Source: Nitrospina sp. LS_NOB (GTDB lineage Bacteria; Nitrospinota; Nitrospinia; Nitrospinales; VA-1). From it: a DNA stretch of 64,000 nucleotides. The stretch spans positions 92,587-156,586 of the forward strand of contig LFLA01000022.1 of the NCBI GenBank assembly GCA_001542995.1, in the 5' to 3' direction. Under the pieces are notes generated by a model that ran no database searches, had not been told where the DNA came from, and saw only the letters and a program-made list of their open reading frames with translations. Positions within the stretch are counted from its first letter, which is position 1; every line of letters starts with the position of its first letter. Shown here one piece after another: positions 41,873 to 59,278 of the stretch. The position numbers and the translations under genes are program-made.

Positions 41873-42564
41873 ACAAACCACAAATCCTCGATTTCTGGAT
41901 CGGATTTTTTAAAGATCTCCTGATTGGCACTTTCAAGAACCTTTTTTTATTCGGCATTTTTGGCTTTTCACTCGGCGCTCTTGCAACCTATGGCTTTGAC
42001 CTGAAGGTGCTCGACACCGCTGAATGGAACGTTTGGCTGGAAGGAATAATTCTAACTTTAGTGGGGATAGGTTATCTCGGTCTCGGTTTGATGCACGGCT
42101 GGATATCCTGCAGTCTCCACCTCCTCAGCAAAAAAATGCGTGAGGCGCTGACCGGACTCCAGGAACTACTGGACTGGCTAACGCGTGAGGTGATTGGACG
42201 TTTTCCAAAATTCCAGAAGAACATCCCCAAACATGAACTGGCAGAAAAGTACGACCAGATCGGAAATGACTTACGCCAGAAGCTGAAACAACGGGGAGGC
42301 ATAACAGGGTTTTCTTCCAGCATCCTGTTTGGAGTCATACTCAAGGCGTTACGCTTTTTTTTCCTGGATGAGGTGGTAGAAGAACTTCAAAAAAAAGATA
42401 AGGAAGAGATCACCTCCGCCGATATCGAACACGCGGTGCGCAGAGTCGGAACGGAAGTCATGATAGCCCCTATCACCGACAGCCTTTTCCTGTTGCAGAT
42501 CGTTAATATTATTATCGGTTTGTTCTTATTCGCCCTGCCCTTCAGCTTGCTCTGGCTGATTTAA
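41869..42564 (+). CDS. hypothetical membrane protein
   Basis: Several TM segments. 4-nt overlap with the J-domain gene. Confidence 0.45.
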
Positions 42565-42652
42565 GCGGAGTACCTCCGCTGGTAATGGGCAAAATCTTAT
42601 TGAACCGAGATAAATTTTGCTCGCAGACGTGATGCCCCCCCCCGCAGGGGTA
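42564..42652 (+). other. conserved hairpin-flanked element, copy A (candidate cis-regulatory RNA or intergenic repeat)
   Basis: AGCGGAG-TAC-CTCCGCT hairpin, an 18-nt block GGTAATGGGCAAAATCTT identical to 59194-59211, shared CCGAGA..TTTTGCT.GC.GA.GTGA, and a closing CCCC-GCA-GGGG hairpin. Confidence 0.5.
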
Positions 42653-42805
42653 GATAGTTGTTACACGCTGGCCCCATGCCGAGTGGGGCCATTGGTTTGA
42701 ATAAAATGTTTCGTTCTCCATAAAAATCAAATCTATTGCAGGCGGTCTGTATCTAAATACTTTATACTAAAATCTTTATCCATTAGAGACCCACATAAAT
42801 TGACT

Positions 42806-43669
42806 ATGAGTCGTTTTTTCACAATAGGAATCTTTATCGTTGGCCTGATCCATTTATTATCTTCCCCTGATAAATGCTGGGCCAAGCCGATCCCGGTTTT
42901 TGTGAGCATCGTGCCGCAAAAATATTTTGTCGAGCGAATTGGCGGTGACCATGTGAAGGTGGAAGTCATGGTGAAACCAGGTGAGAGTCCGGCGACTTTT
43001 AATCCCAACCCAAAAAAAATGAGTCTGCTCTCCCAGGCAAAACTGTATTTCAGCATCGGTGTGCCTTTTGAAACGATCTGGATTAATAGGATTCAATCGA
43101 TCCACCCGAACATGCAGCTCGTTCCTTTGCACACTACCCATAAAAACTCAGAGACCGGGCATGACTCACATCATTCTCATAGCTCTCGCGACCCACATAT
43201 CTGGACCAGTCCCGCAAGAGTCAAGGTCATGGCACAAAAAATCAAGGACACCCTTTCTCGCATCCAACCAGGGCAGGAAAAATATTTCGCAGCGAATCTT
43301 CAAGTATTCTCCAACGATCTGGACGCTTTGGACAGGGATATTCGCGCTATCCTCTCCAGAAACGAGAATCGCCGCTTCATGGTTTTTCATCCGGCCTGGT
43401 CCTATTTTGCCAAGGACTATGGTCTGGAACAGGTTTCTATTGAAGAAGAAGGCAAAGAACCTGGACCCCGAATGTTGCAAAAAATAATTCAAAAGGGCAA
43501 AAGGCTTGGGATTAAGGTAATATTTGTGCAGAAACAATTCAGTCTTTCTATCGCCGAGAACATCGCCAAAATGATTGGCGCCACCGTCCGTGAAATAGAC
43601 CCTCTGGCAGAAGACTATCTGGAAAACATGCGGCGAACGGCTAAAGCCATTTCTGGAGCATTGCAGTGA
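42806..43669 (+). CDS. znuA: zinc ABC transporter substrate-binding protein
   Basis: Signal peptide. His/Asp-rich loop HKNSETGHDSHHSHSSRDPHIW is typical of ZnuA. Cluster 9 SBP layout. Confidence 0.8.
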   Translation: MSRFFTIGIFIVGLIHLLSSPDKCWAKPIPVFVSIVPQKYFVERIGGDHVKVEVMVKPGESPATFNPNPKKMSLLSQAKLYFSIGVPFETIWINRIQSIHPNMQLVPLHTTHKNSETGHDSHHSHSSRDPHIWTSPARVKVMAQKIKDTLSRIQPGQEKYFAANLQVFSNDLDALDRDIRAILSRNENRRFMVFHPAWSYFAKDYGLEQVSIEEEGKEPGPRMLQKIIQKGKRLGIKVIFVQKQFSLSIAENIAKMIGATVREIDPLAEDYLENMRRTAKAISGALQ

Positions 43670-44412
43670 GTACCGACTCAGTCATCAAAATAAAAAATCT
43701 CGACTTCAGCTATGGCGGTCCAAAAATACTTGAAAATATCGAGATAGATATCCAGCGCAACGAGTTCATCGGAATGGTTGGCCCGAACGGAAGCGGCAAA
43801 ACCACCCTGCTGAAAATTATCATGGGTGTTTTGACTCCCGACAAGGGCTCCGTCAAGGTTCTCGGTAATCCCCCTTCCCAATCGGTTAAAGAAATCGGCT
43901 ACATGCCGCAGTTCGCTCCATTTTCCCGAGATTTTCCGATCAGTGTGGAAGAAACCGTATTGATGGGGCGCCTGGGGAAAACTTCCAGTATTGGTTTTTT
44001 TAATAAGGCCGACAAACGTGCCGCCGAAAAATCCATGAACGATGTCGAAATTCTGGACCTTCGTAAAAGAGTCATCGGCTCTCTCTCCGGAGGGCAACTG
44101 CAAAGGGTTCTGATCGCCCGAGCCCTCACCTGCGAACCACAAATCATGATTCTCGACGAACCCACTGCCAATGTCGATATGAAAGTTGAAAAAGATATCT
44201 TCGATCTACTCAAGCAGTTGAATGAGAAAATCACCATCATCGTGGTGACCCACGACATCGGTTTCATTTCGCAATACATTCACCGGGTCGCCTGCATCAA
44301 CCGCACCCTCATCTGCCACCCCACTTCAGAGCTGACTGGAGAAACGATTGAAAATATGTATGGCTCCCATATGCATATGGTGCACCACCATCACGAGGAT
44401 GAAAAAAAATAA
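43666..44412 (+). CDS. znuC: zinc ABC transporter ATPase with His-rich C-terminus
   Basis: GPNGSGKTT, LSGGQLQR and ILDEPT motifs. Tail is HMHMVHHHHEDEKK. Confidence 0.85.
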   Translation: MSTDSVIKIKNLDFSYGGPKILENIEIDIQRNEFIGMVGPNGSGKTTLLKIIMGVLTPDKGSVKVLGNPPSQSVKEIGYMPQFAPFSRDFPISVEETVLMGRLGKTSSIGFFNKADKRAAEKSMNDVEILDLRKRVIGSLSGGQLQRVLIARALTCEPQIMILDEPTANVDMKVEKDIFDLLKQLNEKITIIVVTHDIGFISQYIHRVACINRTLICHPTSELTGETIENMYGSHMHMVHHHHEDEKK

Positions 44413-44414
44413 TC

Positions 44415-45236
44415 ATGAGTAGTTTTATCGATGCAGTTTCATCCCAGGCATTTATGCAGAATGCCATTATTGGTGGCATTCTCGCCAGTGTGGCCTGTGG
44501 AGTGGTGGGCTCTTATGTCGTGGTGAAACGCATCGGTTATCTGGCAGGCGGCATCGCTCATTCGGTGCTTGGCGGAATGGGTATTGCCTATTACCTGGGC
44601 CGACCTCCTATCGAAGGCGCTTTGGTCGCGGCCCTGGTTTTTGCTGTTGTTCTCGGCTGGGTGAGCCTAAAAATGCAAGAACAGGAAGATACCGTCATCG
44701 GTGCGCTGTGGGCAGGAGGCATGGCGGTCGGAATATTGTTCATCTCGCAAACACCCGGATACAACGTCGACCTCATGAGTTTTCTGTTTGGCAATATATT
44801 GATGATCTCATCCGATGACCTGCTCTGGATCGCCGCATTGGATACCCTGATTCTGGTCATCGTTTTTCTATTCTATAAACAATTTCTCGCATTATCGTTT
44901 GATGAAGAGTTTGCCCGCCTGCGTGGCATTCCCGTTGAGAGATTTTATTTGCTCTTTCTTTCTCTCGTTGCGCTGACCGTCGTCATTTTGATTCAAATTG
45001 TCGGACTGATTCTGGTGATCGCATTGTTGACGCTTCCGGCGGCGGTCTCCGGTCATTATGTCCGTTCACTAAACCTGATGATGCTGTTGGCCACTGTTCT
45101 TGGAGTCTTTTTCACCACCGGAGGACTGGCATTGTCTTATCAACCCGACCTGCCACCGGGCCCCACCATCATTCTGCTAGCTGGGGCCTTCTATCTGGTG
45201 TCTTTGGTCATCACCCGATTCTGGAAAAGGGCCTGA
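44415..45236 (+). CDS. znuB: zinc ABC transporter permease
   Basis: ABC-3 family polytopic membrane protein directly after znuC. Confidence 0.8.
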   Translation: MSSFIDAVSSQAFMQNAIIGGILASVACGVVGSYVVVKRIGYLAGGIAHSVLGGMGIAYYLGRPPIEGALVAALVFAVVLGWVSLKMQEQEDTVIGALWAGGMAVGILFISQTPGYNVDLMSFLFGNILMISSDDLLWIAALDTLILVIVFLFYKQFLALSFDEEFARLRGIPVERFYLLFLSLVALTVVILIQIVGLILVIALLTLPAAVSGHYVRSLNLMMLLATVLGVFFTTGGLALSYQPDLPPGPTIILLAGAFYLVSLVITRFWKRA

Positions 45237-45237
45237 G

Positions 45238-45855
45238 ATGAGTGATGCTTGTTCCGAGTTAGAAAGGGACCTCACTTCGCAACACGGCCCCAAGCGCAAG
45301 GTTCTCCGGATCGTTCTTGTTCTCAACCTCATCATGTTTTTTGTCGAAGGGATTTCCGGATGGCTGGCACAATCCAACGCCTTGATGGCCGATGCCCTCG
45401 ATATGCTAGGCGATGCCGCGATTTACGGATTTTCCCTTTTCGTCATTCAACTCGCCCCCATTTGGAGAACCCGAGCCGGAATTCTCAAGGCTGTCATCAT
45501 GAGTCTTTTTGCGCTTGGCGTATTAGGCTCTGCTATTTATCGAGTTTATCATCATGCAGTTCCAGATGCCTCGGTGATGGGCATTGTCGGCGGGCTGGCG
45601 CTACTCACAAACCTGTTCTGCGCTTATTTGCTCCTTCGCTTCAGAGATGACGATATCAATATGCGTTCGGCCTGGTTATGTTCGCGTAACGATGTGCTGG
45701 CTAATCTGGGGGTTTTACTGGCCGCCGGAGGGGTGGCCTGGACAGGTTCCCACTGGCCCGATCTGGCTGTTGGGGTGATCATCTCTGGACTGATCCTGCA
45801 ATCCTCTTTCGGCATTTTTAAAGATGCCCGACAAGAAATGAAAGAACAGCACTAG
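45238..45855 (+). CDS. short cation diffusion facilitator (CDF) family transporter without the cytoplasmic C-terminal domain
   Basis: TM2-type motif MADALDMLGDA and TM5-type region. At 205 aa it has the membrane domain only. Confidence 0.6.
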   Translation: MSDACSELERDLTSQHGPKRKVLRIVLVLNLIMFFVEGISGWLAQSNALMADALDMLGDAAIYGFSLFVIQLAPIWRTRAGILKAVIMSLFALGVLGSAIYRVYHHAVPDASVMGIVGGLALLTNLFCAYLLLRFRDDDINMRSAWLCSRNDVLANLGVLLAAGGVAWTGSHWPDLAVGVIISGLILQSSFGIFKDARQEMKEQH

Positions 45856-45972
45856 TGTGCGGCCAGCGTGACGCTGGACTCAATAGCAATAACTTTTTTT
45901 CCACCTGCAAGCGTTTAACGGCTTTACAAGGTATGGCAAATGCCTCTTCACCTGCCCCACCAAGGGATGGGG

Positions 45973-47748
45973 TTACGCTGGAGCGCCTAATCGTTCTGTC
46001 AGGGAATGGTGCTGGTGGTGAGCGAGATAAAGCAGGCCGTCGGACAAGGAATAATTGTGTGGAAAGGTCATCACCTCTCGTCCCAGCTTTTCGATCAACT
46101 GCTGGTACAACTCATTAGTCTCCTCAGGAGTCATACCTATCGTCGACTCAAAAGAATAACCCAGGCTCAAATCATGTTCGGGCGGTGTGTATAGTTTGGT
46201 GATGCCCCATTCTTCCGGAGCTTTTTCAATCGGCGCGCCACGCTCCAGATCGAACTGGGAAAGGATGGCGGAAAAACCGGGAGAGTCCAGCAGGCGCTGG
46301 TTATTGAGGATAAAGTTGATCGAATCCATCACCTCTTCACGGGTTTCGGTCGGGAATCCGCAAATCAGGTAAAAGTGCATGGCGATTCCTAATTGCATGC
46401 ATCGTTCTGCGGTTTCATCCACCCAACTCAGTTCAACACCTTTCTTCATGGAATCCAAAACCCGCTGATTGTAAGATTCCAACCCAAAAATAAGTTTGCG
46501 GCAACCGGATTTATATAACAGATCCATACGGTCGTCTTTGAGCAAGCTCTTCTCGAACTTCAGTTCGCCCGTCCACTGGACATCCACCTTCTGCTCGATA
46601 ATTTTGGCGGCAAAGGTTCGGAGAAAATTGATCGGCAAAGCTTCATCGGTGAAGAAAAAATGATTGCAGTCATATTTTTCCTGCAAAGTTTTAAAATCGT
46701 TGACCACGTTCTCGGCGTACCGCACATGGAAAGTCATGTGATCGAAAGGAATCGAACAGAAGGCGCACTGTTCCCAGTAACACCCGCGGGAGCCCATCAC
46801 CGGCAATACCAAATCAGGAGAAAGATAAAGGTCCAACGGCAGGCCGTCAAAATCCGGGGTCGGCAAGGCATTCAACTCTTCCTTGGCGAAGGGCCGGTTC
46901 ACTTTCACCTGGCCGTCCTGCTTGTATATCAGGTTGGGAACTTTACTGAGATCGCCGTCACCGCGCAGGTGTTCGACCAGTCTGAGGAGCGGTGTCTCGC
47001 CTTCATGCACAATAAAGCTGTCAACAAAATCAAAAAGGTGCGAACCGTCCTTTTCCAAACGATCCACCAATTTGGTAAACACGCTTCCGCCAATGGTGAT
47101 ATGGATTTCGGGCCGGTTCTGTTTGACCAGATAAGCCAGGGTCAGGCCAGAAATGATTTGTTCCACCGAGGTGATAGAGATTCCGAGAATGTCGATGTCT
47201 TCTTCCAGAATTCCCGGCAGATACCATTGCTTGTAGAGGTCGTAGAAGAAATTTTCTTCCGGGTGATTGAAAGAGTCGATCACCTCTTTAGATGAATACG
47301 GGGAAAACCGCATCTGACTGCCAATGACAGTCAACTGCGACGGATAATAGGGTGCCAGAATATTGTCCAGCCAGACATCCATGATCTTGAGATTTTCCAT
47401 ATACTGGTCGATCTCATAGAACTCCTGACTGCGTTGCGAGGACACGGCAGAGTCGATCTGGTCTTTCAAGGCCATGACGATCTCTTCCGCTTCGCGGAGC
47501 TTGTTGAATTTCTCTGCTTCCTCCTGCGTCAGCCGGGGCTTAGCACTCAGTTCATTCAACTCGCGGATGATGCGCTCGTAAAGCGGTTTGGTTTTCTCCC
47601 AAGTACATAGGTCATTGAGCAACTCAATTGCCAGATCGCGCTGGACGACATCGTGCACCCCATGCATATTGAGAAACGCCTTCAAGCTGGGCAAACTCAG
47701 ATAGGGTTGTGATGGATGCCAGGATGTTGGGAAAACCAGATATATCAT
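45973..47748 (-). CDS. B12-binding-domain radical SAM protein
   Basis: N-terminal Rossmann-like B12-binding region (DILGISITSV...ITIGGSVF). The cluster motif is read as GCYWEQCAFC. Length is 591 aa. Confidence 0.75.
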   Translation of the reverse strand: MIYLVFPTSWHPSQPYLSLPSLKAFLNMHGVHDVVQRDLAIELLNDLCTWEKTKPLYERIIRELNELSAKPRLTQEEAEKFNKLREAEEIVMALKDQIDSAVSSQRSQEFYEIDQYMENLKIMDVWLDNILAPYYPSQLTVIGSQMRFSPYSSKEVIDSFNHPEENFFYDLYKQWYLPGILEEDIDILGISITSVEQIISGLTLAYLVKQNRPEIHITIGGSVFTKLVDRLEKDGSHLFDFVDSFIVHEGETPLLRLVEHLRGDGDLSKVPNLIYKQDGQVKVNRPFAKEELNALPTPDFDGLPLDLYLSPDLVLPVMGSRGCYWEQCAFCSIPFDHMTFHVRYAENVVNDFKTLQEKYDCNHFFFTDEALPINFLRTFAAKIIEQKVDVQWTGELKFEKSLLKDDRMDLLYKSGCRKLIFGLESYNQRVLDSMKKGVELSWVDETAERCMQLGIAMHFYLICGFPTETREEVMDSINFILNNQRLLDSPGFSAILSQFDLERGAPIEKAPEEWGITKLYTPPEHDLSLGYSFESTIGMTPEETNELYQQLIEKLGREVMTFPHNYSLSDGLLYLAHHQHHSLTERLGAPA

Positions 47749-47820
47749 TTCAATATTTGTCTTATAATTTGTAAATTACCCCAGCCCCTCATTAAAAAAA
47801 GGGGTTTATCGGCCCAACGC

Positions 47821-48147
47821 CTAGTTGGGTTTGGGAGCCATAAAAACCAGCATGACTAGTTTATCATCAGTGTGGTTCACTACTCCGTGATCCTCACCCG
47901 ATGGAGCCAGGGTAATTTCGTGTTGCGAAAGCACTTTTTCTTCCGCCCCCACGGTCACCTTGGCCTGACCTTCGAGCACATAATAAACCTTGTCGGACCC
48001 CTCATGGGAGTGGACTTTCTGGAACTGACCGGGCTCAAGACAGTATACATCACAAAAGAAATTATCCGTGTCAAACAGGCTGACTTTTTTCATCTTTTCG
48101 GGATTGAACTCAAACACATCCCAGACATTCACCACTTTCATTCCCAT
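47821..48147 (-). CDS. cupin domain protein
   Basis: The HSHEGSDKVYYVLEG ... GEDHGV pattern matches the two cupin motifs. Confidence 0.7.
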   Translation of the reverse strand: MGMKVVNVWDVFEFNPEKMKKVSLFDTDNFFCDVYCLEPGQFQKVHSHEGSDKVYYVLEGQAKVTVGAEEKVLSQHEITLAPSGEDHGVVNHTDDKLVMLVFMAPKPN

Positions 48148-48346
48148 ATCTTAAATTTCCGTTAAATAGATTTTTGGCCTGTCACCGGCCGGTTTGTTTC
48201 TGTCCGCTATCCGCAACTTGCCAGAGGCCATCTATCGCTGGCAGACAAAAAACTCTCAAATTTTCATGAAGTTAGAGATGATATCATAGAAGGCGAATCA
48301 GGCCAAAAAAAAACAGGTCCCGCAGGTTTTATACAACCCTATTTTA

Positions 48347-48375
48347 TTGACATCCCCTCCACGATCCACTATTTT
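48347..48375 (+). promoter_or_regulatory. candidate promoter for tRNA-Pro
   Basis: TTGACA (48347-48352), 17-nt spacer, TATTTT (48370-48375), about 80 nt upstream of the tRNA. Confidence 0.35.
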
Positions 48376-48453
48376 GAAAAGCATTCTATAGTCGGAGATG
48401 CAGACTGATGGCAATCAACGCATCCCGGCACACATTCCAAGATAATTCGAATT

Positions 48454-48531
48454 CGGGACGTAGCGCAGCCTGGTTAGCGCACTTGACTGGGGGTCAAGGG
48501 GTCGGAGGTTCAAATCCTCTCGTCCCGACCA
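48454..48531 (+). tRNA. tRNA-Pro (anticodon GGG), CCA encoded
   Basis: Hand-folded cloverleaf. Acceptor CGGGACG/CGUCCCG, D arm GCGC-AGCCUGGUUA-GCGC, anticodon arm CUUGA-CUGGGGG-UCAAG, T arm GGAGG-UUCAAAU-CCUCU, discriminator A, CCA. Confidence 0.9.
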
Positions 48532-48585
48532 TTTTATATGAGGGCTTATGGGGTTTCCCCCGTAGGCCCTTATTTTTTTTGGGGA

Positions 48586-49524
48586 TTAAGTTTCCTTGGA
48601 TTTGGTTTTTTCCTGGATGGCGTTGAACACCGATAAGGCCTGCGCCACCATGGAACCAGCATCACCCGTTTGGGCCGGTAACAAAATAGTATTGGATTCT
48701 TTGGCGAGATTGGAAAAGGCTTCAATATACTGTTCAGCTAATTTGAGAGCCACTGCTTTTTCGCCACCGGCTTTATCTATTGATGCGGCGACCATTTCGA
48801 TACCCTCTGCCGTGGCCTTGGCCACGGCCAGTATCGCCTCGGCCTCTCCCTTTGCCCGGTTGATCTGGTCGGTCATGGCCGCTTCAGATTTCAACACCAC
48901 TTCCTGTTTGATTCCTTCAGCAATATTGATCTGCGATTGTCGTTTTCCTTCGGAATCCAAAACTTCTGCCCGCTTTTGACGTTCCGCCGCAACCTGCAGT
49001 TCCATGGCCGTACGCACATTAGCGGGCGGAGTTATATCTTTAATCTCATAACGCAGACACTGAATGCCCCATACACTGGACGCTTCGTTGATGGACTGGA
49101 CAATATTTGTGTTCAATATTTCCCGTTCCTCAAAAGTTTTATCCAAGGTGATTTTGCCCAGCTCAGACCGCATCGTGGTTTGCGCCAGTTGGCTGATGGC
49201 ATAGAGAGGATCGCGCACTCCATAGGAGGCTTGTTTGGGATCGGTGATTTTCAAATACAGGATTCCATCGATCACCAGCGTCACATTGTCCTGAGTGATG
49301 GCAGATTGACTGGGAATATCGACGGCATTTTCCTTTAAGGAATGTTGGTAAGCGATCTTATCCACAAAAGGAATGATAAAGTGCAAGCCAGCAATCAGCG
49401 ATTCATTGTACCTTCCCAGTCTTTCTACGATCCAGACCTTTTGCTGAGGGACTAATTTAACGCCCTTAAAAACAAAGATAAATACAACAAAAGCAATGGC
49501 TAGAAGTAAATTTGGTATTTCCAT
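48586..49524 (-). CDS. SPFH/band 7 (stomatin-like) protein
   Basis: N-terminal TM segment, an SPFH core (VPQQKVWIVERLGRY...DNVTLVIDGILY) and a coiled-coil tail. Paired with an NfeD gene. Confidence 0.8.
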   Translation of the reverse strand: MEIPNLLLAIAFVVFIFVFKGVKLVPQQKVWIVERLGRYNESLIAGLHFIIPFVDKIAYQHSLKENAVDIPSQSAITQDNVTLVIDGILYLKITDPKQASYGVRDPLYAISQLAQTTMRSELGKITLDKTFEEREILNTNIVQSINEASSVWGIQCLRYEIKDITPPANVRTAMELQVAAERQKRAEVLDSEGKRQSQINIAEGIKQEVVLKSEAAMTDQINRAKGEAEAILAVAKATAEGIEMVAASIDKAGGEKAVALKLAEQYIEAFSNLAKESNTILLPAQTGDAGSMVAQALSVFNAIQEKTKSKET

Positions 49525-49588
49525 GACCCCTCCCTAATTTGGAAGATTCGCCTGCGAGTTTGTAAGCCCTCTTTCAAAGGCCCTAATA

Positions 49589-50056: not shown

Positions 50057-50338
50057 AAAGTCTTCCCTTTGGCACTTTATCTATGAGAGCAATAATCCTT
50101 TAGGTCCCGAACCATCCTTTTCCCTAATCCGAACTGGTCAAATTCTGCTATAAATATCCCCCGTTTGCAAACCTTATTGCCGTGCTATCGCGGGTCAAAA
50201 CTGCTGCTATCACGCTTTAGAAAGTAAAAATGAGGACTATTTCAGTGGTCCATCAAAAAATTTAGGCAACACCTAAAGTTTGCCATCCATATGACGATTA
50301 GATTAATAGCACCTTTAGGACAAAAAAAGGAGAAAGTC

Positions 50339-50431: not shown

Positions 50432-50468
50432 AGGAACCCCGGTAACGGTCTCGATAAATTCGGAAAAT

Positions 50469-51448: not shown

Positions 51449-51616
51449 CTTTCAAGACGTGCAGGAAATATTTTCAGAGGGGTTCAGCGACTTGAAGAAA
51501 TTTTTCTAGCTACCCCCTCCGGGGAAGGAACATAATGTTGGAAATATCACCGCCCCTGCGGCGAGCAGTTAAACCAGCGTATCGGCGCATTTTCCGGAAG
51601 TCTGGTCGCAGGGGTT

Positions 51617-51901
51617 GTGTTTTGGGTCCTGCCCACCCCGCCCTTCATGCCTATGATTCTGGGCGGATTGATAGGAATGTTCCTGGTTCTGCCACTAAAA
51701 ATCCTATTTATGCCCTTTTTTGGAGCATTTGAGGTAATGATTCCGATGGGAATCATCGGAATGGGAGTAGGAATGGCAACCGGGATGCTATCCCACCTTC
51801 CCGACCTGTCAGCAAATTTGGTTATCGCTGGGGGTGGCTTGATGGGATTTCTCGTTTCCACGGTCATCTATTTCTCCAACAAACGCCTTTCAGAAAAATG
51901 A
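51617..51901 (+). CDS. small hydrophobic membrane protein; start uncertain, possibly frameshifted from the ATG at 51535
   Basis: Gly/Met-rich TM segments. A better RBS (GGAAGGA) precedes the ATG at 51535, which is in another frame. Confidence 0.35.
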   Translation: MFWVLPTPPFMPMILGGLIGMFLVLPLKILFMPFFGAFEVMIPMGIIGMGVGMATGMLSHLPDLSANLVIAGGGLMGFLVSTVIYFSNKRLSEK

Positions 51902-52503
51902 ACTCCAAAAAACAATCTTATGACGGCGTAGCCCGCTTTTTTGACTTTTTTGCCAAGGGAGATATGGCCCGGTGGGGTCCCAGTCAACGCAGTCTGTTCA
52001 AAAACCTGCGTGGAAAAGTTCTCTATATAGGAATAGGAACCGGACAGGAAACCGTCAACTTCCCAGAAGGATTGGATATCACCGCAGTAGACCTGAGTTA
52101 TGAAATGCTCAAGCGGTCCCGGCAACGCGTCGCCAAACTATCCTGGAAAAATCAACCGCTGCCAGATGGATGCAGAGACCACCGCGTTTGCCGACAACAC
52201 CTTCGATACCGTAGTAACCTGTTGCGCCCTCTGCACCGTGAAACAACCGGTACTCTGTCTGGAAGAACTCAAGCGAGTGCTGAAACCCGACGGTAAACTG
52301 GTCATGTTTGAACATGTCTGAGCAAGAATCCGGTTTACGGCCTCGTCCTGAAACTCATGTCACTCATCACCGAAAAACTGCAAGGAACCTACCTCGACCG
52401 CAACACCGTCAGCAATGTCGAGTTGGCAGGATTCAAAATCCACTCGCATAAAAACATCTATCTTGATATCGTCAAAGCATTGGTAGGAAAACCCGCAGCA
52501 TAA
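51898..52503 (+). pseudogene. class I SAM-dependent methyltransferase with two opposite frameshifts
   Basis: VLYIGIGTGQE (motif I) is in frame 1. FDTVVTCCALCTV..LKPDGKLVMFEHV is in frame 2 (52100-52321). The C-terminus LSKNPVYGLV...VGKPAA returns to frame 1 and ends at 52503. Confidence 0.75.
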
Positions 52504-52516
52504 CCACAGAGGATTT

Positions 52517-52963
52517 TTGCTTGAAGAAGTTTACGCAAACAGGCAACGCCTCGGAAACAGGCAACGCCTGATGATACTCGGACTCGAAGACATACCCGGA
52601 GGCACACCCCTTGTTTCTTTCCTCCTCTGGTTGGGACTGTCCGGACTGTTTTATATGGTCTGCTATCTCGCCATTCTCAATGTTCTGGATGACCTGACGA
52701 AAAACAGCCTGCTGAAAATCCCGGCGATGCTCGGAGCAGCCATTCCATCAGCGGGGCTGATGGCGATCTTCCATTACAAACCCTTCGCGCTGGGAGCAGT
52801 AATTTGCATCACTAATTTTTACCGTGTCCGTGCCATGCAGACTTCAGAGAAATGGAAAGACCTCAAACCAAATCCTGCCCTCTTTTATGTCGCCAGCTAC
52901 GCTTATATTTTTCTACTGATGGCCCTGGCAATTTATATCCCCACCCTCGACTTCAGCCAATAG
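52517..52963 (+). CDS. hypothetical membrane protein
   Basis: Four hydrophobic segments. No recognisable motif. Confidence 0.4.
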   Translation: MLEEVYANRQRLGNRQRLMILGLEDIPGGTPLVSFLLWLGLSGLFYMVCYLAILNVLDDLTKNSLLKIPAMLGAAIPSAGLMAIFHYKPFALGAVICITNFYRVRAMQTSEKWKDLKPNPALFYVASYAYIFLLMALAIYIPTLDFSQ

Positions 52964-52997
52964 CTACTTGGCGTCGTAGGGCCAGCTAAAAAAACTT

Positions 52998-53013
52998 CCC
53001 CCTGATAAGGGGG
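52998..53013. repeat. C5/G5 hairpin (CCCCC-TGATAA-GGGGG) in a GC-rich intergenic patch
   Basis: Read directly from the sequence. Same C-arm/G-arm style as the hairpins at 58899-58920 and 58974-58995. Confidence 0.4.
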
Positions 53014-53170
53014 ATTGAGGGGGTTGCATTGCCCGTCTTTGCGAGGAGGCTTTAGCCAACGCGGCAATCTAGCCTCTGCCTGCCCGGCTGTCATCCTGAG
53101 CCTGTCGAAGGGTGAGGCCCTCGAAGCATCAAGACCACCTATCCATAAACCACTGATTTTTAAATAGTTA

Positions 53171-53199
53171 TTGACAATCCAGTGGAGCCGGATTATATT
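53171..53199 (+). promoter_or_regulatory. candidate strong sigma70-type promoter
   Basis: TTGACA (53171-53176), 17-nt spacer, TATATT (53194-53199). Confidence 0.45.
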
Positions 53200-53216
53200 A
53201 GCCCTTATTTAACTAT

Positions 53217-53513
53217 TTGATTTATATAGGCTTACCGATGATTCTCCACATATTTGAATGTTCCAAATGTCAGCGTCAGCAAAAGCATGTCACCTCTACC
53301 CCTTCTCCGCTGGGGCTTTCCTATATGTCCGATTGCGCCACCTGCGATCAGGTGATGACTTTTAAATTTATTCGTGAGGGAAACAGAAAAGAAGACTGGT
53401 ATTCAAACATCCTGCGACAAGTGCAACGGAAACGCACCGAGGAAAAATCCTTCACACCTAAAAGGAAGGACGATCAAATCGATGATGATAAAATCGACAA
53501 GGTAGCAATCTGA
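53217..53513 (+). CDS. small zinc-ribbon-like protein with basic/acidic tail
   Basis: CSKC ... CATC cysteine pairs. The start could be the ATG at 53238. Confidence 0.4.
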   Translation: MIYIGLPMILHIFECSKCQRQQKHVTSTPSPLGLSYMSDCATCDQVMTFKFIREGNRKEDWYSNILRQVQRKRTEEKSFTPKRKDDQIDDDKIDKVAI

Positions 53514-53564
53514 TTATTTTCAAAATCCCCGATAAAAAATTTTATCAAGAATAAAAAAAACCAA

Positions 53565-54074
53565 CTAGTTCAGGAGTCCTCGACAGCGGGCGATATAGGT
53601 GCGGTTAACATCGGCGTGGGGTTGAATTTCGAGGGCTTTTTGAAAACACCGAATAGCTTCTTCGTACCGTCGCAGATCAAACATACATAGTCCCATCCCA
53701 TTCAAGGCGCCAAAATGGTGCGGAATCTTTCGTAGCACTTCTTCACATTCTTTAACCGATTCTTCGTATTGTCCCATGATAAACAGGAGGGTTGCGAGTT
53801 TGTTATGCGCTTCAGAGAAATCCGGACATTTCTCGACCAGGGACCGGAACATTTCAAGAGCTTGCTCGTGTTGCTGACGATCCATCAACCGGGTTCCTTC
53901 ATTCAGTTCCTTCTCCATCTCAGCCCCCAATTGGCTATACCAGAGAATCCATAACCCCCGCGTGGCGTTCTCGCGAATGGAGGGGTCTTCACTCTTCAGG
54001 TCTGCTAGGTATTGCTCAGTTTTGTCCATGGTACAAATAAGTATAGCGGAGAACCTCCGCAGGCGTAACATCAT
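53565..54074 (-). CDS. TPR repeat protein
   Basis: Three or four 34-aa TPR units (AL..F...VE..PD..EAHN.LA...). An alternative start lies at 54029 (MDKTEQYL). Confidence 0.7.
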   Translation of the reverse strand: MMLRLRRFSAILICTMDKTEQYLADLKSEDPSIRENATRGLWILWYSQLGAEMEKELNEGTRLMDRQQHEQALEMFRSLVEKCPDFSEAHNKLATLLFIMGQYEESVKECEEVLRKIPHHFGALNGMGLCMFDLRRYEEAIRCFQKALEIQPHADVNRTYIARCRGLLN

Positions 54075-54413
54075 TCATCAGTTCTCATGGACCTTTGATG
54101 TCCCACCCCCACAAATCTCATGAGGCTGTGAAATCCTCCAACATTAGTTTTATGCCCTATAGGAGGGTGCTGGCGGCGGTTCGCCGCTTTTCCTAGGCTA
54201 AGGGGCTATCCCGTCGGTGCTCGCAGACGGATTTCAGTTCGACCAGGGCGTTGACAATACCGGAGATTTCAGCGATGAAGAAGTTGGGGTCAATGAGATT
54301 TTTTGACGCTGTAATTGCCCAGGCATAAACCGGCTCAGTTTTATCCCAAATTATTTTTCGGATACAATGAATTTCATTACTCCTTATAACTTATTCTTAC
54401 TAAAGCGTGAACC

Positions 54414-55946
54414 ATGCCAAAACCTAACAAGTTCCCCACGCAAATTCCTGGAATAAAAGTTACACAATGGCTAGAGGAATGGAATGAAATTCACTTTGAC
54501 AAGAAAACTTATAAGAAAAAACCAGAACCTTGTTTCTATATATTTTCTCTCTCTGCACCTATTTTACAAAGTTTAAGTGGAATATACCCCAGAACTACAA
54601 AAGGCGGCCAAAGACGTTCCCAAGATCTTGGAATCCAAAGGCAGCATGAAAAGCCTAGGTCCGAAGAAATTAACCAATTTATACACTTTGGTTTTCCTTG
54701 GTCAGATTTGAGCGAGAGGAAAAGGCGATCCCAAGAATTTTCTGATCTAAGAAAACCCGGTTGGTTGCCTACGGCAATTGTTGTAAACATTCTTATTCCA
54801 AATGATAAAAGGCAGGGGAAAAATATTTCTAAGGATGATTTGATCACTATTCAAGAAAAAAATTCAAACGTAAGTCTAAACCTTCCAAAGAACTTTAAGT
54901 TAGGTAGTTGGAAGCCTAAAGGGCTCCCTCCCATAGAAATTATTGACGGTCAGCATCGCTTATGGGCATTTGAGAAAACTAATCTAAAGGGTGACTTTGA
55001 ACTTCCAGTAGTTGCTTTTTATGGTCTAGATATAAGCTGGCAGGCTTACCTCTTTTGGACGATAAATATCAAACCCAAACGGATCAACCCAAGTCTTGCA
55101 TTTGATCTTTACCCACTCCTTCGAGCAGAAGACTGGCTGGACAAGTTTGAGGGCCATTCTATCTATCGTGAAACAAGAGCTCAGGAACTTACAGAGGTTT
55201 TATGGTCTTACCCTGAAAGCCCTTGGTATCAAAGAATTAATATGTTGGGGGAACGTGGTTTAAAAAAACCTATGGTCACACAAGCGTCTTGGATCCGATC
55301 TTTAATGGCAACCAATGTCAAATCCTACAAAGGCTCTAGGGTAAGAGTTGGAGGGCTTTTCGGTGCACCAACAGGCAAGCACGAAACCGTTATTGGCTGG
55401 AATCGGCCACAGCAGGCAGCATTTTTAATTTTAATGGGGCAAATTCTATTTGAAACGGTAACTAACTGCACAGAAAATTGGGCAAAAGCCTTAAGAAAAA
55501 ATGCTATGAAACCACTTTTCGGCAAAGAGGACCCGGCCTTACACGGACCACATACTCTGATTAATACAGACCAAGGTATTAGAGCAATTTTATATATATT
55601 CAACGACCTTTTTTATGTTCGAGCTAAGGAATTGAAACTTGAGAGCTGGTCATTTGGCTCAATTGAAACAGATGATACGACCATAAAAGAAGCACTTTCA
55701 TCCTTAAAAAACAGAAAAATGATTGTTAATTATTTTAGGGAAATTGCTAATTGTTTAAAAAAATTCGACTGGCGTACTTCAGCGGCATCCGGATTGACAG
55801 AAGACGAGCAAATTAGAAAATCGGCTTTCAGGGGAAGTGGGGGTTATAAAGTGCTTAGGATCCAATTATTAAAACCTTTATCCTTAGATAAAAAAGACGT
55901 TGGAAAAGCTAGTAAAGATGTTTTAGCGTACTTGGGTTCTAAATAA
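54414..55946 (+). CDS. DGQHR-domain (DndB / ParB-Srx fold-like) protein
   Basis: Literal motif PPIEIIDGQHRLWAF. Upstream basic blocks (GGQRRSQDLGIQRQH) are as in DndB-like proteins. At 510 aa it has a long C-terminal extension. Confidence 0.7.
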   Translation: MPKPNKFPTQIPGIKVTQWLEEWNEIHFDKKTYKKKPEPCFYIFSLSAPILQSLSGIYPRTTKGGQRRSQDLGIQRQHEKPRSEEINQFIHFGFPWSDLSERKRRSQEFSDLRKPGWLPTAIVVNILIPNDKRQGKNISKDDLITIQEKNSNVSLNLPKNFKLGSWKPKGLPPIEIIDGQHRLWAFEKTNLKGDFELPVVAFYGLDISWQAYLFWTINIKPKRINPSLAFDLYPLLRAEDWLDKFEGHSIYRETRAQELTEVLWSYPESPWYQRINMLGERGLKKPMVTQASWIRSLMATNVKSYKGSRVRVGGLFGAPTGKHETVIGWNRPQQAAFLILMGQILFETVTNCTENWAKALRKNAMKPLFGKEDPALHGPHTLINTDQGIRAILYIFNDLFYVRAKELKLESWSFGSIETDDTTIKEALSSLKNRKMIVNYFREIANCLKKFDWRTSAASGLTEDEQIRKSAFRGSGGYKVLRIQLLKPLSLDKKDVGKASKDVLAYLGSK

Positions 55947-57272
55947 ATGCCGCCTCTCAGATCCACGCTTAATAACGCCTCTAGAAGTGCAGTTCGCAAT
56001 TCATTTAAAAATCTAGAAAAACACTTTTCCGATAGAAGATGGATAGGCCCAAGAAATTACTATAAGACCGACTGCATAAACAGGTTAAGTAATTCTCCAA
56101 GGGAGTCTCAATTAGCTCAATATATTGCTGCATCTGCACCTGTTCATTGCATGGACGGTTGGGGTTTTATAGGAAGGGCTTTGGATTGTTTAGCAAAAGG
56201 AGACACCTATGTATCGAGGCACCTGGGATATTATGCCGAATTAAGAGCTACAATGGCTTTATTGGCGACTGAAGGAATTGGAATTTTTAACCAAAAACAT
56301 TTTATAATAAATGGTAACAACCAGTGCACCAGAATCTCTCAAAACATGGGAACCCATGACATGGCTTGGAGTGCTTTAGAGACCTGGGCAAACCTACCTC
56401 AATCCTCCAGTCTTTTGGGTGAAATTATTTCAAGTCACAGAATATCTTTAATGGATTGGATGATAGGATTTTTCCCTGGAGGAGGGTTTCCAACAATCGG
56501 AACGACTTGGTTAAAAGCATGGGGAGTAGATTTAAGAGAAATAAGTAATGATAGAGGAATTCGAAATGAAGCTAGTTATAGACCTACAAGGTTAAATAAT
56601 ATTGCGCCCCAGCCTCCTAATGAGTGCATACAATTTATCAATGAATTTTGGACCCTATTTGAACCAAGCGAAAGTTTACCATTTAGCAACCTCGACCAAC
56701 ATTTGGCGAGAGAAAGTTTAGATAAAATTTATAAAAGTATTACAGGAAAAAGACCAAATCCTGCTACTAAAAAATTCACCCAACTCATTAATTCAACGGT
56801 AAACCACTTTTTTGACCCCATCACCTCATTAGTCAGTAATAACTATTTGAAAAAATTTTTTACTAGAGCTGTTCAACCCGAGACGCCGAATTTGATTAAA
56901 TATGCTGAAAAGCCACCCTCGCTAACAGATCCAGACCTTCATTTCCAAATTATATCTCGTGCAGCTCTTCTTCTAAGAATAGCCACTGGAGCTACTGCCC
57001 AGCTATTTAAACATCAAAATCTAGACAAAATGAGTTTAGATTTTTGGTGGAAGCCACTAGGGGAGGAACGTGGTTTTTGGGAACCCGGCAATGAACCTAG
57101 TAATTTTTCTGACCTGTGGGCAGATCTAGAAGTGGTTTTGAATGAAGAAAAGAGTTGGAGAGAACAAGTGGGGAGTGCTCTTAGTTTTAATTCCTGGCAT
57201 AATAATAATTCGGATTGCATCCAAAAACTAGGAGGCTGCGAAAGAATTGCCTTATGGGGTTTCGGGTTTTAA
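55947..57272 (+). CDS. hypothetical 441-aa protein, no motif recognised
   Basis: The ATG immediately follows the TAA of the DGQHR gene. Clean ORF with the same AT-rich composition. Confidence 0.6.
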   Translation: MPPLRSTLNNASRSAVRNSFKNLEKHFSDRRWIGPRNYYKTDCINRLSNSPRESQLAQYIAASAPVHCMDGWGFIGRALDCLAKGDTYVSRHLGYYAELRATMALLATEGIGIFNQKHFIINGNNQCTRISQNMGTHDMAWSALETWANLPQSSSLLGEIISSHRISLMDWMIGFFPGGGFPTIGTTWLKAWGVDLREISNDRGIRNEASYRPTRLNNIAPQPPNECIQFINEFWTLFEPSESLPFSNLDQHLARESLDKIYKSITGKRPNPATKKFTQLINSTVNHFFDPITSLVSNNYLKKFFTRAVQPETPNLIKYAEKPPSLTDPDLHFQIISRAALLLRIATGATAQLFKHQNLDKMSLDFWWKPLGEERGFWEPGNEPSNFSDLWADLEVVLNEEKSWREQVGSALSFNSWHNNNSDCIQKLGGCERIALWGFGF

Positions 57273-57316
57273 ATTGTCAAAAACTATCCAGAACTAACTT
57301 ACCAGAACTAACTTAA

Positions 57317-58129
57317 ATGAAAAATTCTAATTACAACATCCTTCCTCCTCTTAAATGGGCTGGAGGAAAACGTTGGTTGGTAAACGAACATTTAAATCTA
57401 TTTCCAAAAAATTTTAACCGGTATATTGAACCTTTTTTTGGAAGTGGGGCCGTTTTTTTCAAATTGCAGCCACCAAAAGCGACTCTCTCTGATTTAAATA
57501 GTGAGTTAATTGAAACCTATAAATCAATTAAGAGTGACTGGAGGAAAGTATTCCAAGCTTTAAAAACACATCAAAGACTTCATACAAAGGACTATTATTA
57601 CAAAGTAAGAGCACAAAAGCTAAAAGCCCCATACTCTAAAGCGGCCCGTTTCATTTACCTGAATAGGACCTGTTGGAATGGTTTATATCGGGTTAATTTA
57701 CAAGGAAATTTCAATGTCCCAATAGGCACGAAAACCAAAGTGATTTTGGATTCAGACGATTTTGAAGGGGTCGCCAAATTATTGAAAAATTCAAGACTAT
57801 TGGCAGAAGATTTTAAAACAATTATTGAGCAAGCAAAAAAGGGCGACTTTTTATTTGTCGACCCACCATACACTGGGATGCACAATCAAAATAACTTCAT
57901 AAAATATAATGAGAAATTATTTAGTTTAGACGACCAAATTCACTTAAACGATTCCCTTGTCAAAGCCAAAAAAAGAGGGGTGAAAATTCTTTTAACAAAT
58001 GCCTGTCACCCTTTTGTCAAAAAGCTCTACAAAGACCATTTTGAAATGATTAGAGTTAGCAGAAAAAGTGTTATTGCTGCAAATCCTAAAAACAGAACCC
58101 CCATAGAGGAGTTTGTCATAACTACTTAA
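57317..58129 (+). CDS. Dam-family (D12 class, alpha-type) N6-adenine DNA methyltransferase
   Basis: LKWAGGKR, EPFFGSGAVF (FxGxG) and FVDPPY (DPPY), in alpha-class order. Confidence 0.85.
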   Translation: MKNSNYNILPPLKWAGGKRWLVNEHLNLFPKNFNRYIEPFFGSGAVFFKLQPPKATLSDLNSELIETYKSIKSDWRKVFQALKTHQRLHTKDYYYKVRAQKLKAPYSKAARFIYLNRTCWNGLYRVNLQGNFNVPIGTKTKVILDSDDFEGVAKLLKNSRLLAEDFKTIIEQAKKGDFLFVDPPYTGMHNQNNFIKYNEKLFSLDDQIHLNDSLVKAKKRGVKILLTNACHPFVKKLYKDHFEMIRVSRKSVIAANPKNRTPIEEFVITT

Positions 58130-58201
58130 ATGCAAATAAAAAAGAGGGGCTTAGTTAATACAGGAACGGCAACCACATCGGGGTTTGGGCGCGGTAGTTC
58201 T

Positions 58202-58870
58202 CTAGTCTTCGCCAAATTGCTCTTTTAAGGCCAGTTCTTCAAAATGGATTCTGAACTGGAAACCGAACCAGGCGGAAAGTGTACCGAGCGTTCCCCAAAT
58301 CCATGAGTGGGTGGTGATGGCATAGGCAAGAATGACCAGCATCATCATCGTGTAAGTCGGGTGACGCATGCGGCCATGAAGGCCATCGGTTTTTAGGGTC
58401 TGTTTTTCGCGAAAGGCAATGTTGAACTTGAACCGCAAAACCCCCAGCTGAACTATCGCCCAGACGCGCAGTATGGACCCGACAATAAAAAGCGTCACTA
58501 TCAGACTGATTTCCAAAACGGTGACCGGCGCTACGCCGGCGCGGGCAACAAACGACATACCCACCAGAGCCATGCAAATGGGTAACACATGTCCAAAGAG
58601 CTGTTGGAAATAAGGTTTATCAAAAGTGATGTCTTCGGGTTTTTCGGTCAATGCGAAAATGACTATCTCAATGATGCCAAAAATAAAATTGATGTAGGAA
58701 ACGAGGAGGAATCGTTCAATATTGGTGTCGGTCATCCCTAGAGGAATGAGGGGTGCCAGATAGGTGAGCCCGACCAGGATGATGTTGAAATTGAAGTTCT
58801 TGATCAAACAGGCAGCAAAAACCACGCAATAAACGGTAAAATTGATTTTTAACAGGAAAATGGCATCCAC
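58202..58870 (-). CDS. isoprenylcysteine carboxyl methyltransferase (ICMT)/phospholipid methyltransferase family membrane protein
   Basis: Polytopic. C-terminal L.T.G....RHPTY....L......H signature (GLHGRMRHPTYTMMMLV) and EE.L...FG. Confidence 0.6.
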   Translation of the reverse strand: MDAIFLLKINFTVYCVVFAACLIKNFNFNIILVGLTYLAPLIPLGMTDTNIERFLLVSYINFIFGIIEIVIFALTEKPEDITFDKPYFQQLFGHVLPICMALVGMSFVARAGVAPVTVLEISLIVTLFIVGSILRVWAIVQLGVLRFKFNIAFREKQTLKTDGLHGRMRHPTYTMMMLVILAYAITTHSWIWGTLGTLSAWFGFQFRIHFEELALKEQFGED

Positions 58871-58898
58871 ACGTTGTTCCTCAAAATGACAATTTGTT

Positions 58899-58995
58899 CC
58901 TCCCCTGTCATGAGGGGAGGCCAGGAGGGGTGTGGATTTTCCTGGCTAAATTCGTGAGCTAACCCTCCCCTAGCCCCTCCCTATGAAGGGAGGGG
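58899..58995. repeat. two 8-bp C-arm/G-arm hairpins (CCTCCCCT-GTCATG-AGGGGAGG and CCCCTCCC-TATGAA-GGGAGGGG)
   Basis: Read directly at 58899-58920 and 58974-58995 in the divergent intergenic region. Confidence 0.45.
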
Positions 58996-59159
58996 AAGCT
59001 AAATCTCTTCCCTAAATAGTTTACCCGCACACATTATTGCTGAAACATCCAGAATCTGGTATTCTACTGTTCTTCAAGGTATTTTTGTTATAAAATACTG
59101 TGATATTCAATGCGTGATCCCTATTTGTGACCATTTCTACCAGTTCCACAAATTCGGGT

Positions 59160-59165
59160 TATAAT
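59160..59165 (+). promoter_or_regulatory. perfect TATAAT -10 hexamer just upstream of leader element copy B
   Basis: TATAAT lies 11 nt before the first hairpin of the element. No good -35 was found. Confidence 0.3.
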
Positions 59166-59176
59166 TGACTCATTTT

Positions 59177-59278
59177 GGCGGGGTACCCCCGTTGGTAATG
59201 GGCAAAATCTTGTTAGCCGAGAAAACTTTTTGCTAGCGGATGTGAATTAAACCTGAACTTTCGTGCCCCGCAGGGGTA
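59177..59278 (+). other. conserved hairpin-flanked element, copy B, abutting the reductase start codon
   Basis: GGCGGGG-TAC-CCCCGTT hairpin, identical 18-nt block at 59194-59211, shared CCGAGA..TTTTGCT.GC.GA.GTGA, and CCCC-GCA-GGGG (59266-59276) followed by TA-ATG. Confidence 0.5.

Follow-up and report, generated by a model that had tools for sequence, protein, structure and literature searches.

A duplicated hairpin-flanked element upstream of znuA and a NIR_SIR-TusA gene in Nitrospina sp. LS_NOB: a probable low-copy, lineage-restricted repeat

A hairpin-flanked element occurs twice in a 64,000-nucleotide stretch of contig LFLA01000022.1 from Nitrospina sp. LS_NOB (the window), once upstream of the zinc-uptake gene znuA (copy A, 42564–42652) and once upstream of a gene encoding a NIR_SIR-TusA reductase (copy B, 59177–59278). 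The original prediction, made from the window alone, offered two interpretations: a new cis-regulatory RNA tying sulfur/nitrogen reduction to zinc uptake, or a small intergenic repeat family. The question is which of these, if either, is supported by related genomes. The comparisons described here suggest that the two copies are probably a low-copy non-coding repeat or leader duplicate restricted to one marine Nitrospinales lineage, and not a ligand-sensing RNA.

Architecture and copy number of the element

Both copies are real and lie on the + strand at the positions predicted for them. They are ∼80% identical over ∼100 nt and share the exact 18-mer GGTAATGGGCAAAATCTT, a similarity far above chance: aligned locally, A and B score 95 and shuffled sequences at most 35, and the 18-mer has just two sites in the window, even at three mismatches, a count reached in none of 100 shuffles. 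The predicted order of parts is also present in both copies, namely a 7-bp hairpin with a UAC loop (P1), CCGAGA, TTTTGCT, GTGA and a CCCC-GCA-GGGG hairpin, and the fold z-scores of the element are about −2 to −3. In copy A, P1 (AGCGGAG-UAC-CUCCGCU; 42564–42580) begins within the stop codon of an upstream 231-aa gene and is followed by the core GGUAAUGGGCAAAAUCUU...CCGAGA...UUUUGCUCGCAGACGUGA (42581–42633; covariance-model score 88 bits), which includes an AU-rich hairpin (P2), and by the CCCC-GCA-GGGG hairpin (42634–42652), a REP-like unit without the 13-nt stretch ATTAAACCTGAAC that is found in copy B just 5′ of the closing hairpin. Copy B consists of P1 (GGCGGGG-UAC-CCCCGUU; 59177–59193), the core GGUAAUGGGCAAAAUCUU...CCGAGA...UUUUGCUAGCGGAU with its P2 hairpin (59194–59241) and a REP-like palindromic unit, GUGAAUUAAACCUGAACUUUCGUGCCCCGCAGGGGUA (59242–59278). 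Three matches to the palindrome GCGGRG-N3-CYCCGC are present in the window, compared with 0.38 expected.

The compensatory changes that had been noted in P1 reduce to a single pair that is truly compensatory (A-U to G-C), the rest being G-U wobble changes, and all pairs of P2 and P3 are invariant between the two copies. An RNAalifold analysis of copies A and B with L084 and L093, the two closest relatives, gave a covariation term of only 0.06; one of 29 pairs is compensatory, located in P1, and no covariation was detected outside this first hairpin. Across the wider set of leaders P1 alone covaries, with many compensatory changes.

Membership of a known Rfam family was not borne out, as no family in Rfam 15 matches copy A or B, either at gathering or at E ≤ 10, where the output is noise only (snoR8a, PyrR205 and a wrong-strand speF hit). 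For comparison, both genuine cobalamin riboswitches of the window score 112–118 bits. A covariance model searched with filters off recovered only copies A and B in the window; across related loci totalling 422 kb, the model recovered L084 and L093 alone, the other matches being weak and nearly all within reductase leaders. An exact scan for the core pattern in 185,579 species genomes, among them a complete chromosome (2.68 Mb) from the same species-level lineage, returned 92 stretches but a single genuine match, in L084, a Nitrospinales MAG that is 96% identical to the window. The full element appears to be present in one or two copies per genome, not dozens.

The reductase leader in related genomes

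Copy B was originally described as abutting the start codon of the reductase gene, with the AGGGG of its closing hairpin as the only Shine–Dalgarno-like sequence and hence with the potential to occlude ribosome binding. Neither statement survives comparison with relatives. The ATG at 59279 is ATA in both L084 and L093, and all 77 orthologues for which upstream sequence is available start with ATGGAT, ATGGAC, ATGAAT or ATGAAG at the position equivalent to 59330 of the window, preceded at 6–8 nt by a GAGG-type Shine–Dalgarno sequence. In the window this sequence is GAGGG (59320–59324), which together with the ATG at 59330 marks the true ribosome-binding site and start (59320–59332, + strand); AGGGG is therefore not the sole Shine–Dalgarno-like sequence. 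Since the ATG at 59279 is false and the conserved start has a Shine–Dalgarno sequence of its own, the closing hairpin does not hold the ribosome-binding site. A further hairpin, ACCGGCA-GUU-UGCCGGU (59300–59316, + strand), lies just 5′ of the Shine–Dalgarno sequence at the 3′ end of the copy-B leader, and no terminator-like site was found on the + strand of this leader. The predicted TATAAT is present at 59160–59165 on the + strand, 11 nt before P1, and the corresponding position is A/T-rich and −10-like in most orthologues; a simple sigma-70 scan identified no full promoter there because no −35 element is found at 16–18 nt.

The core is largely missing from orthologous genes, contrary to what a regulatory role common to relatives would entail. 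Among 80 orthologous reductase loci of metagenomic origin (72–99% amino-acid identity) it is found only in L093 (99%), to which L084 is added from the genome scan. Leaders at ∼90% protein identity mostly retain P1 and the following TGG and then diverge completely. P1 folds in 13 of 14 leader-type sequences (copies A and B and 12 orthologous leaders), its arms differing in sequence with complementarity kept (AGCAGG/CCTGCT, CCGGAG/CTCCGG and GTGGAG/CTCCAC), and an equivalent of the copy-B hairpin with another sequence is present in nine of the ten other folded orthologous leaders. The leader as a whole is no better conserved than its flanks (94.5–95.7% versus 95.5–96.1%), and L084 alters two supposedly conserved motifs, GUGA to GCGA and GCUAGC to GCUGGC.

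On these observations, copy B is probably the form taken in this species by the fast-evolving 5′ leader of the NIR_SIR-TusA gene. This leader comprises a 5′ stem-loop, P1, followed by GGUAAU, the only part common to sister lineages and one whose sequence covaries; the lineage-specific AU-rich hairpin P2; and, embedded in it, a REP-like palindrome of ∼40 nt whose family is dispersed in this clade. The hairpins would be generic in their action, with P1 possibly protecting or tuning the reductase mRNA as a 5′-terminal stem-loop. The 5′ UTR hairpin of Escherichia coli ompA is a stem-loop of this type that stabilizes its mRNA. P1 resembles it in being a stable hairpin of 6–8 bp located a few nucleotides from the predicted transcript start, with structure rather than sequence preserved across lineages, and differs from it in having decayed in some relatives, as in L100 (−1.4 kcal/mol).

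The insertion beside znuA and the dispersed 3′ unit

Copy A is missing from all five related znuA contexts (L173, L174, L175, L176/L177 and L178/L179). In blastn comparisons of these loci with the window, homology stops at 42562–42565 and resumes at 42693–42722, which delimits a window-specific inserted block of 128 nt (42565–42692, + strand) consisting of copy A, a linker and a terminal hairpin. The latter, GGCCCCAUGCCGAGUGGGGCC (GGCCCCA...TGGGGCC; 42670–42690, + strand), had been correctly placed 3′ of copy A; the same module recurs in three other reductase leaders (L097, L098 and L110) and at L099:691, and the 3′ third of the block can be aligned to the reductase leaders of L110, L098 and L097. 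This insertion site is occupied in L174 by a GIY-YIG gene and in L175 by a Tle1-like gene, and is probably a hotspot of recombination or insertion. Between the block and znuA (42806–43669, + strand, start ATG 42806), which encodes a periplasmic zinc-binding protein with a His-rich loop, lies a stretch of ∼85 nt (42720–42805, + strand) that is kept in all relatives and is probably the promoter or control region. Copy A precedes znuA by position only, with this conserved, promoter-like block intervening.

Copies A and B differ by ∼20%, yet copy A is absent from genomes that are just 4–14% divergent; copy A is therefore no simple recent copy of the resident copy B. Copy A is probably part of a strain-specific, ectopic copy of a reductase-type leader, 128 nt long. 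This copy follows the stop codon of the 231-aa gene, which encodes a membrane protein, and precedes the conserved block taken as the znuA promoter; it probably arose by illegitimate, microhomology-assisted or REP-associated recombination. The hairpins of copy A could stabilize the 3′ end of the upstream dnaJ-like operon or weakly terminate it.

The 3′ unit has a wider distribution. With its GTGATATT..CCTAAA flank, TTCGTGCCCCGNAGGGGTA is found in ten other distinct places in relatives, in both orientations, and 13 distinct instances are obtained at up to three substitutions. Of the ten instances beyond the reductase leader, nine are not within a stop-free stretch of 120 codons or more. The units form an inverted pair in L112 (124–222) and a tandem in L110 (1627–1665), and two copies are present in L115; L099 contains a 71-nt repeat twice at 90% identity, and the window holds one or two units in 64 kb. 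The unit at 59242–59278 is accordingly a short, imperfect, G+C-rich extragenic palindrome with conserved flanks, of a kind that recurs in both orientations and in clusters, and in these features, as in the inverted and tandem pairs and the mosaics that they form, it resembles the REP/BIME sequences of E. coli and Pseudomonas. The A/B block differs from these in being longer than a REP, in carrying the non-dispersed, leader-specific P1 and P2 and in the seemingly low number of units in the window. The sequences 5′ of the unit elsewhere are not homologous to P1 and the core (local alignments, p = 0.2–1.0), and only the 3′ hairpin unit of ∼40 nt belongs to the dispersed REP-like family. The alternative offered in the original prediction, a small intergenic repeat family, is nearer the evidence than the regulatory one, with the qualification that the full element appears to be low-copy and that dispersal applies to the 3′ unit alone.

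Alternative explanations and significance

Independent insertion of an active or recent small non-autonomous mobile element, MITE-like or a BIME-like REP mosaic, into the reductase leader and beside znuA is possible but unlikely. It would account for the clean insertion of copy A relative to five contexts at a site that accepts other insertions, for the leaders of relatives that look like mosaics of common hairpin modules in differing orders, and for the dispersal of the 3′ unit in both orientations and in inverted and tandem pairs. The ends of block A (GCGGAGTACC... and ...GAGTGGGGCCA), however, are not inverted repeats of each other, and neither terminal inverted repeats nor a target-site duplication was detected when the junctions were compared with L173, L176 and L175, where the site is empty; tests of the element as a MITE failed on these grounds and on the many near-identical copies per genome that a MITE would show. 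Moreover, the 5′ two-thirds of the element (P1 and the core) lack homology to what precedes the unit elsewhere, the core has one true match among all the species genomes scanned, including the complete chromosome of the same lineage, and P1 with GGUAAU appears to be an original part of the reductase leader in sister lineages. The pneumococcal BOX and RUP elements and the Correia/NEMIS MITEs of Neisseria offer a close parallel, being ∼100–150 nt long, built of hairpin modules, located in leaders and 3′ UTRs and variably present among strains. Their hairpins can influence mRNA stability or termination. In contrast to these, the present element shows neither terminal inverted repeats nor a target-site duplication, and one or two copies are present rather than tens to hundreds.

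A new riboswitch or other cis-regulatory leader RNA that co-regulates the reductase and the zinc-uptake operon in response to a common signal is extremely unlikely. Both copies do lie on the coding strand 5′ of genes, the 18-nt block between the hairpins is strongly conserved, the fold z-scores are favourable and copy B has a −10-like hexamer before it and the gene after it; the 5′-UTR position of copy B, the several hairpins and the unpaired conserved block between helices recall metal and cofactor riboswitches (NiCo/czcD, Mn2+ yybP-ykoY, Moco and cobalamin). Unlike these, the element has no Rfam match, no conservation of its core, no covariation in P2 or P3 and no valid expression platform, the one proposed depending on the false start codon and the copy-B leader lacking a terminator-like site. 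The core is missing both from orthologues at ∼90% protein identity and from all five znuA contexts, copy A belongs to a strain-specific insertion located before the conserved znuA promoter block, L084 alters motifs taken to be conserved, and the closing hairpin belongs to a generic repeat that is dispersed. On the comparative data, this interpretation appears to be largely refuted already. Equally improbable is a DNA-level operator, with a dimeric regulator bound to GCGGAG-N3-CTCCGC, or a trans-acting small RNA: the excess of the palindrome in the window and the position of P1 of copy B directly after the −10-like hexamer, as is typical of repressor sites, are set against orthologue arms that vary and stay complementary, the pattern of an RNA or DNA hairpin rather than of a sequence-specific protein site, against the lack of a terminator marking the 3′ end of a small RNA from copy B, and against the absence of conservation beyond the lineage. 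A more speculative and very unlikely variant is that P1-GGUAAU-P2 is a young, lineage-specific regulatory RNA cassette, born in the reductase leader and copied beside the zinc-uptake operon, in which the 18-nt block would be a functional site for a protein, small RNA or ligand; if true, this would be a cis-regulatory RNA caught spreading within one genome. Against the repeat or leader-duplicate reading favoured here, the invariance of the 18-nt block within copies that are otherwise only ∼80% identical exceeds what an old duplicate decaying neutrally would show.

If the element is a lineage-restricted repeat or leader duplicate, as seems likely, it opens no new path into sulfur, nitrogen or zinc regulation, and the main value of the analysis lies in a corrected annotation, in which the start codon of the NIR_SIR-TusA gene moves from 59279 to 59330, and in a cautionary example of an apparent riboswitch undone by close relatives. 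Both the small REP-like repeat family and the insertion hotspot indicated here are potential strain markers in marine Nitrospinales. A weak candidate third copy, identified at 54172–54233 in the search of the window, hints at additional family members.

A rare element present in two copies

The element predicted at 42564–42652 (copy A, upstream of znuA) and 59177–59278 (copy B, in the leader of the NIR_SIR-TusA reductase gene) was confirmed at both sites on the + strand, with the parts in the order originally described: a 7 bp hairpin with a UAC loop (P1), an 18-mer, CCGAGA, TTTTGCT, GTGA and a closing CCCC-GCA-GGGG hairpin (P3). The 18-mer GGTAATGGGCAAAATCTT is exact in both copies, which are its only matches in the 64 kb window when up to three mismatches are allowed (none of 100 shuffles gave two matches), and local alignment of A with B scores 95 compared with a shuffle maximum of 35. 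The repeat is therefore real. The compensatory changes claimed between the copies survive in part: one hairpin pair is truly compensatory (A–U to G–C), but all of the proposed pairs in P3 and in the AU-rich core hairpin (P2) are invariant, and RNAalifold gives a covariation term of 0.06.

A scan of 185,579 species genomes with the pattern GGTAATGGGCAAAA-N10-34-TTTTGC produced 92 stretches, a single one of which is genuine. This locus, L084, lies on the 2.68 Mb chromosome of a Nitrospinales MAG and is 96% identical to window positions 58997–64000; an exact core-pattern scan of the whole chromosome identified the copy B site only. The other 91 stretches were rejected as chance matches with neither CCGAGA nor flanking hairpins, as were the four matches to the 18-mer in a viral collection, all inside unrelated sequence. 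A covariance model built from P1 and the P2 core recovered A and B alone in the window with filters off, and in 422 kb of related loci its significant scores were confined to L084 and a second close relative on the reductase side, L093. With one genuine match in the genome scan and few covariance-model matches, the element is, as judged by its exact core pattern, rare rather than a high-copy repeat. It is confined to one species-level lineage.

The element had originally been matched to none of the riboswitch classes considered, and neither copy gave a match in Rfam 15 above the gathering threshold or with E ≤ 10. The Rfam matches elsewhere in the window are a tRNA and two full-length cobalamin riboswitches, at 7922–8123 (− strand, 112 bits) and 8787–8969 (+ strand, 118 bits), which are divergent and lie about 660 nt apart. 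A literature search turned up no publication on Nitrospina REP elements, nor any on such a riboswitch.

A candidate third copy at 54172–54233 combines a P1-like hairpin (GGCGGCG-GTT-CGCCGCT) with an exact 12-mer, TGCTCGCAGACG, found also in copy A. Its scores are weak (covariance-model E = 1.3, local alignment p = 0.024), and it is possibly a degenerate copy. A third P1-type palindrome, GCGGAG-AAC-CTCCGC (54046–54060), is adjacent to the start of a − strand gene for a TPR protein.

The reductase leader

A search with the N-terminal 276 residues of the NIR_SIR-TusA (Pfam) protein identified 80 marine metagenomic loci with 72–99% identity. All 77 orthologues with upstream sequence start at the equivalent of position 59330, with ATGGAT or a similar sequence, and each has a GAGG-type Shine–Dalgarno sequence 6–8 nt before this start (GAGGG in the window, 59320–59324). 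The ATG at 59279 is the longest-ORF start of the gene and not the real one; it reads ATA in L084 and L093, the two closest relatives. Given the conserved start at 59330 with its own Shine–Dalgarno sequence, the element does not abut the start codon, as had been claimed, and P3 does not hold the ribosome-binding site. The occlusion model rests on the wrong start codon.

Among the 80 reductase loci the full element is present only in L093 (99% amino-acid identity). In most leaders from loci of about 90% identity a −10-like A/T-rich hexamer and ATTTTGG persist, along with a 5′ hairpin where P1 would be and, usually, TGG; downstream of these shared parts the leaders are unrelated or carry fragments only, with remnants TGGTAGCAGGCAAAACCTTTGCTCGAC in L101, TGGTAATAAGC in L104 and TGGTAATGGGAAAAAT in L098. 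What is preserved in P1 is the structure rather than the sequence, the arms being, for example, AGCAGG/CCUGCU, CCGGAG/CUCCGG, GUGGAG/CUCCAC or GGCGGGG/CCCCGCU. Single-sequence folds, used because MAFFT had put several of the hairpins out of register, gave a stable P1 for 13 of 14 leader-type sequences, a set made up of both copies and 12 orthologous leaders. Conservation of the leader within the species does not exceed that of the flanking sequence (94.5–95.7% versus 95.5–96.1% identity), and the substitutions in L084 fall on positions previously described as conserved (GUGA to GCGA and GCUAGC to GCUGGC). The leader evolves fast, and copy B is one of its variants.

Upstream of the −10-like hexamer, in the region of 59123–59153 and 59052–59097, an inverted repeat ATTTGTG...CACAAAT with a variable spacer is present in many of the closer orthologues (at least 86% identity), and a block further upstream, GAATCTGGTATTCTACTGTT..TTATAAAATA, is conserved even in the 73–84% clades. 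These features may be real promoter or regulator sites, or they may belong to the divergent PEMT/ICMT-like gene. Directly upstream of the reductase locus, 54414–58129 encodes a DndB-like protein (weak Pfam match), a protein of unknown function and a D12-class N6-adenine DNA methyltransferase, an arrangement resembling a small restriction/defence or mobile island.

Copy A and the znuA junction

ZnuA homologues led to five related contexts (L173; L174; L175; L176 with L177; L178 with L179), with L173 belonging to the same MAG chromosome as L084. In all five, homology to the window ends at 42562–42565, the stop codon of a 231-residue membrane-protein gene, and returns at 42693–42722. The intervening 128 nt (42565–42692, block A), comprising copy A and a GGCCCCATGCCGAGTGGGGCC hairpin, are unique to the window in comparison with the five contexts, and the covariance model found no copy anywhere in these znuA loci. 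Approximately 85 nt directly before znuA (42720–42805) are conserved in all relatives and are thus likely to be its promoter and control region. Copy A is inserted upstream of this block, outside the conserved control sequence of znuA, and the insertion is strain-specific.

The junction that holds block A in the window is empty in L173 and L176. The same place is occupied by a GIY-YIG gene in one context (L174:2120–3000) and by a Tle1-like gene of the T6SS lipase family in another (L175:704–2890), where the 3′ end of the 231-residue gene is also duplicated (approximately L175:2850–2882). This makes the junction a hotspot for insertion or recombination. The flanks of block A contain neither terminal inverted repeats nor a target-site duplication. 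The copy A hairpins score as terminator-like, with weak T tails.

In the window a CDF cation-efflux gene (45238–45855; 42806–45855 overall) comes after the znuABC uptake operon and shares its orientation, an arrangement kept in L173–L176 and L178, and ZnuA carries the His-rich loop typical of zinc-specific binding proteins. At the reductase locus (58997–64000) the MAG chromosome carrying L084 and L173 shares 96% identity with the window; around znuA (39850–46673) the figure is only 89–93%, with 86% identity for the ZnuA protein. This unequal identity suggests mosaic recombination between lineages.

Origin of the parts and interpretation

Relatives carry further instances of the 3′ part of copy B, GTGA(T)ATTAAACCTRAACTTTCGTGCCCCGCAGGGGTA, in both orientations and at a distance of 1–3 kb from the reductase gene; the flank is GTGATATT..CCTAAA..TTCRTGCCCSGNASGGGTA. 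This part was identified at ten further distinct places, nine of them extragenic, and occurs as an inverted pair (L112:124–222), in tandem (L110:1627–1665), as two units in L115 (255–273 and 464–482) and within a 71 nt unit repeated at 90% identity in L099 (584–654 and 1472–1542). P3, the closing hairpin, is a dispersed unit of generic type, and the 3′ part of copy B is a REP-like palindromic unit. A REP-like family defined by TTCRTGCCCSGNASGGGTA and conserved flanks is dispersed in marine Nitrospinales relatives. Homology of the 5′ two-thirds (P1 and core) to the sequence preceding REP-like units elsewhere was rejected (p = 0.2–1.0), as was a widely dispersed family of P1-type palindromes: there are six distinct exact-arm instances in 0.52 Mb, four of which are copy A or reductase leaders.

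The copy A unit is without the 13-mer ATTAAACCTGAAC that is present in copy B just upstream of the hairpin. The reductase leaders of L110, L098 and L097 can be aligned to the 3′ third of block A, which therefore seems to be an ectopic duplicate of a fuller, ancestral-type leader and not of the resident copy B.

The repeat is probably an ordinary lineage-restricted intergenic repeat or a duplicated leader fragment. The 3′ unit of copy B behaves like REP elements, and the mosaics resemble BIMEs or BOX elements. A mobile MITE or BIME-like element is a doubtful explanation; for the features of a MITE the whole element tested negative, with no terminal inverted repeats, no target-site duplication and no multiple copies. 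Far less probable is the originally proposed new cis-regulatory RNA or riboswitch: for every class feature tested the outcome was negative, the whole element being without the expected conservation, covariation, expression platform or Rfam membership.

For a lineage-restricted repeat or duplicated leader fragment, P1 could serve the reductase mRNA as a 5′ stem-loop, with a role in stability or tuning, and any effect of the copy A hairpins would be on the 3′ end of the dnaJ-like operon that lies upstream. Illegitimate or REP-associated recombination probably gave rise to the duplication. TG.CT.ATTT is common to the left junctions of copies A and B, but in copy A this stretch is native coding sequence.
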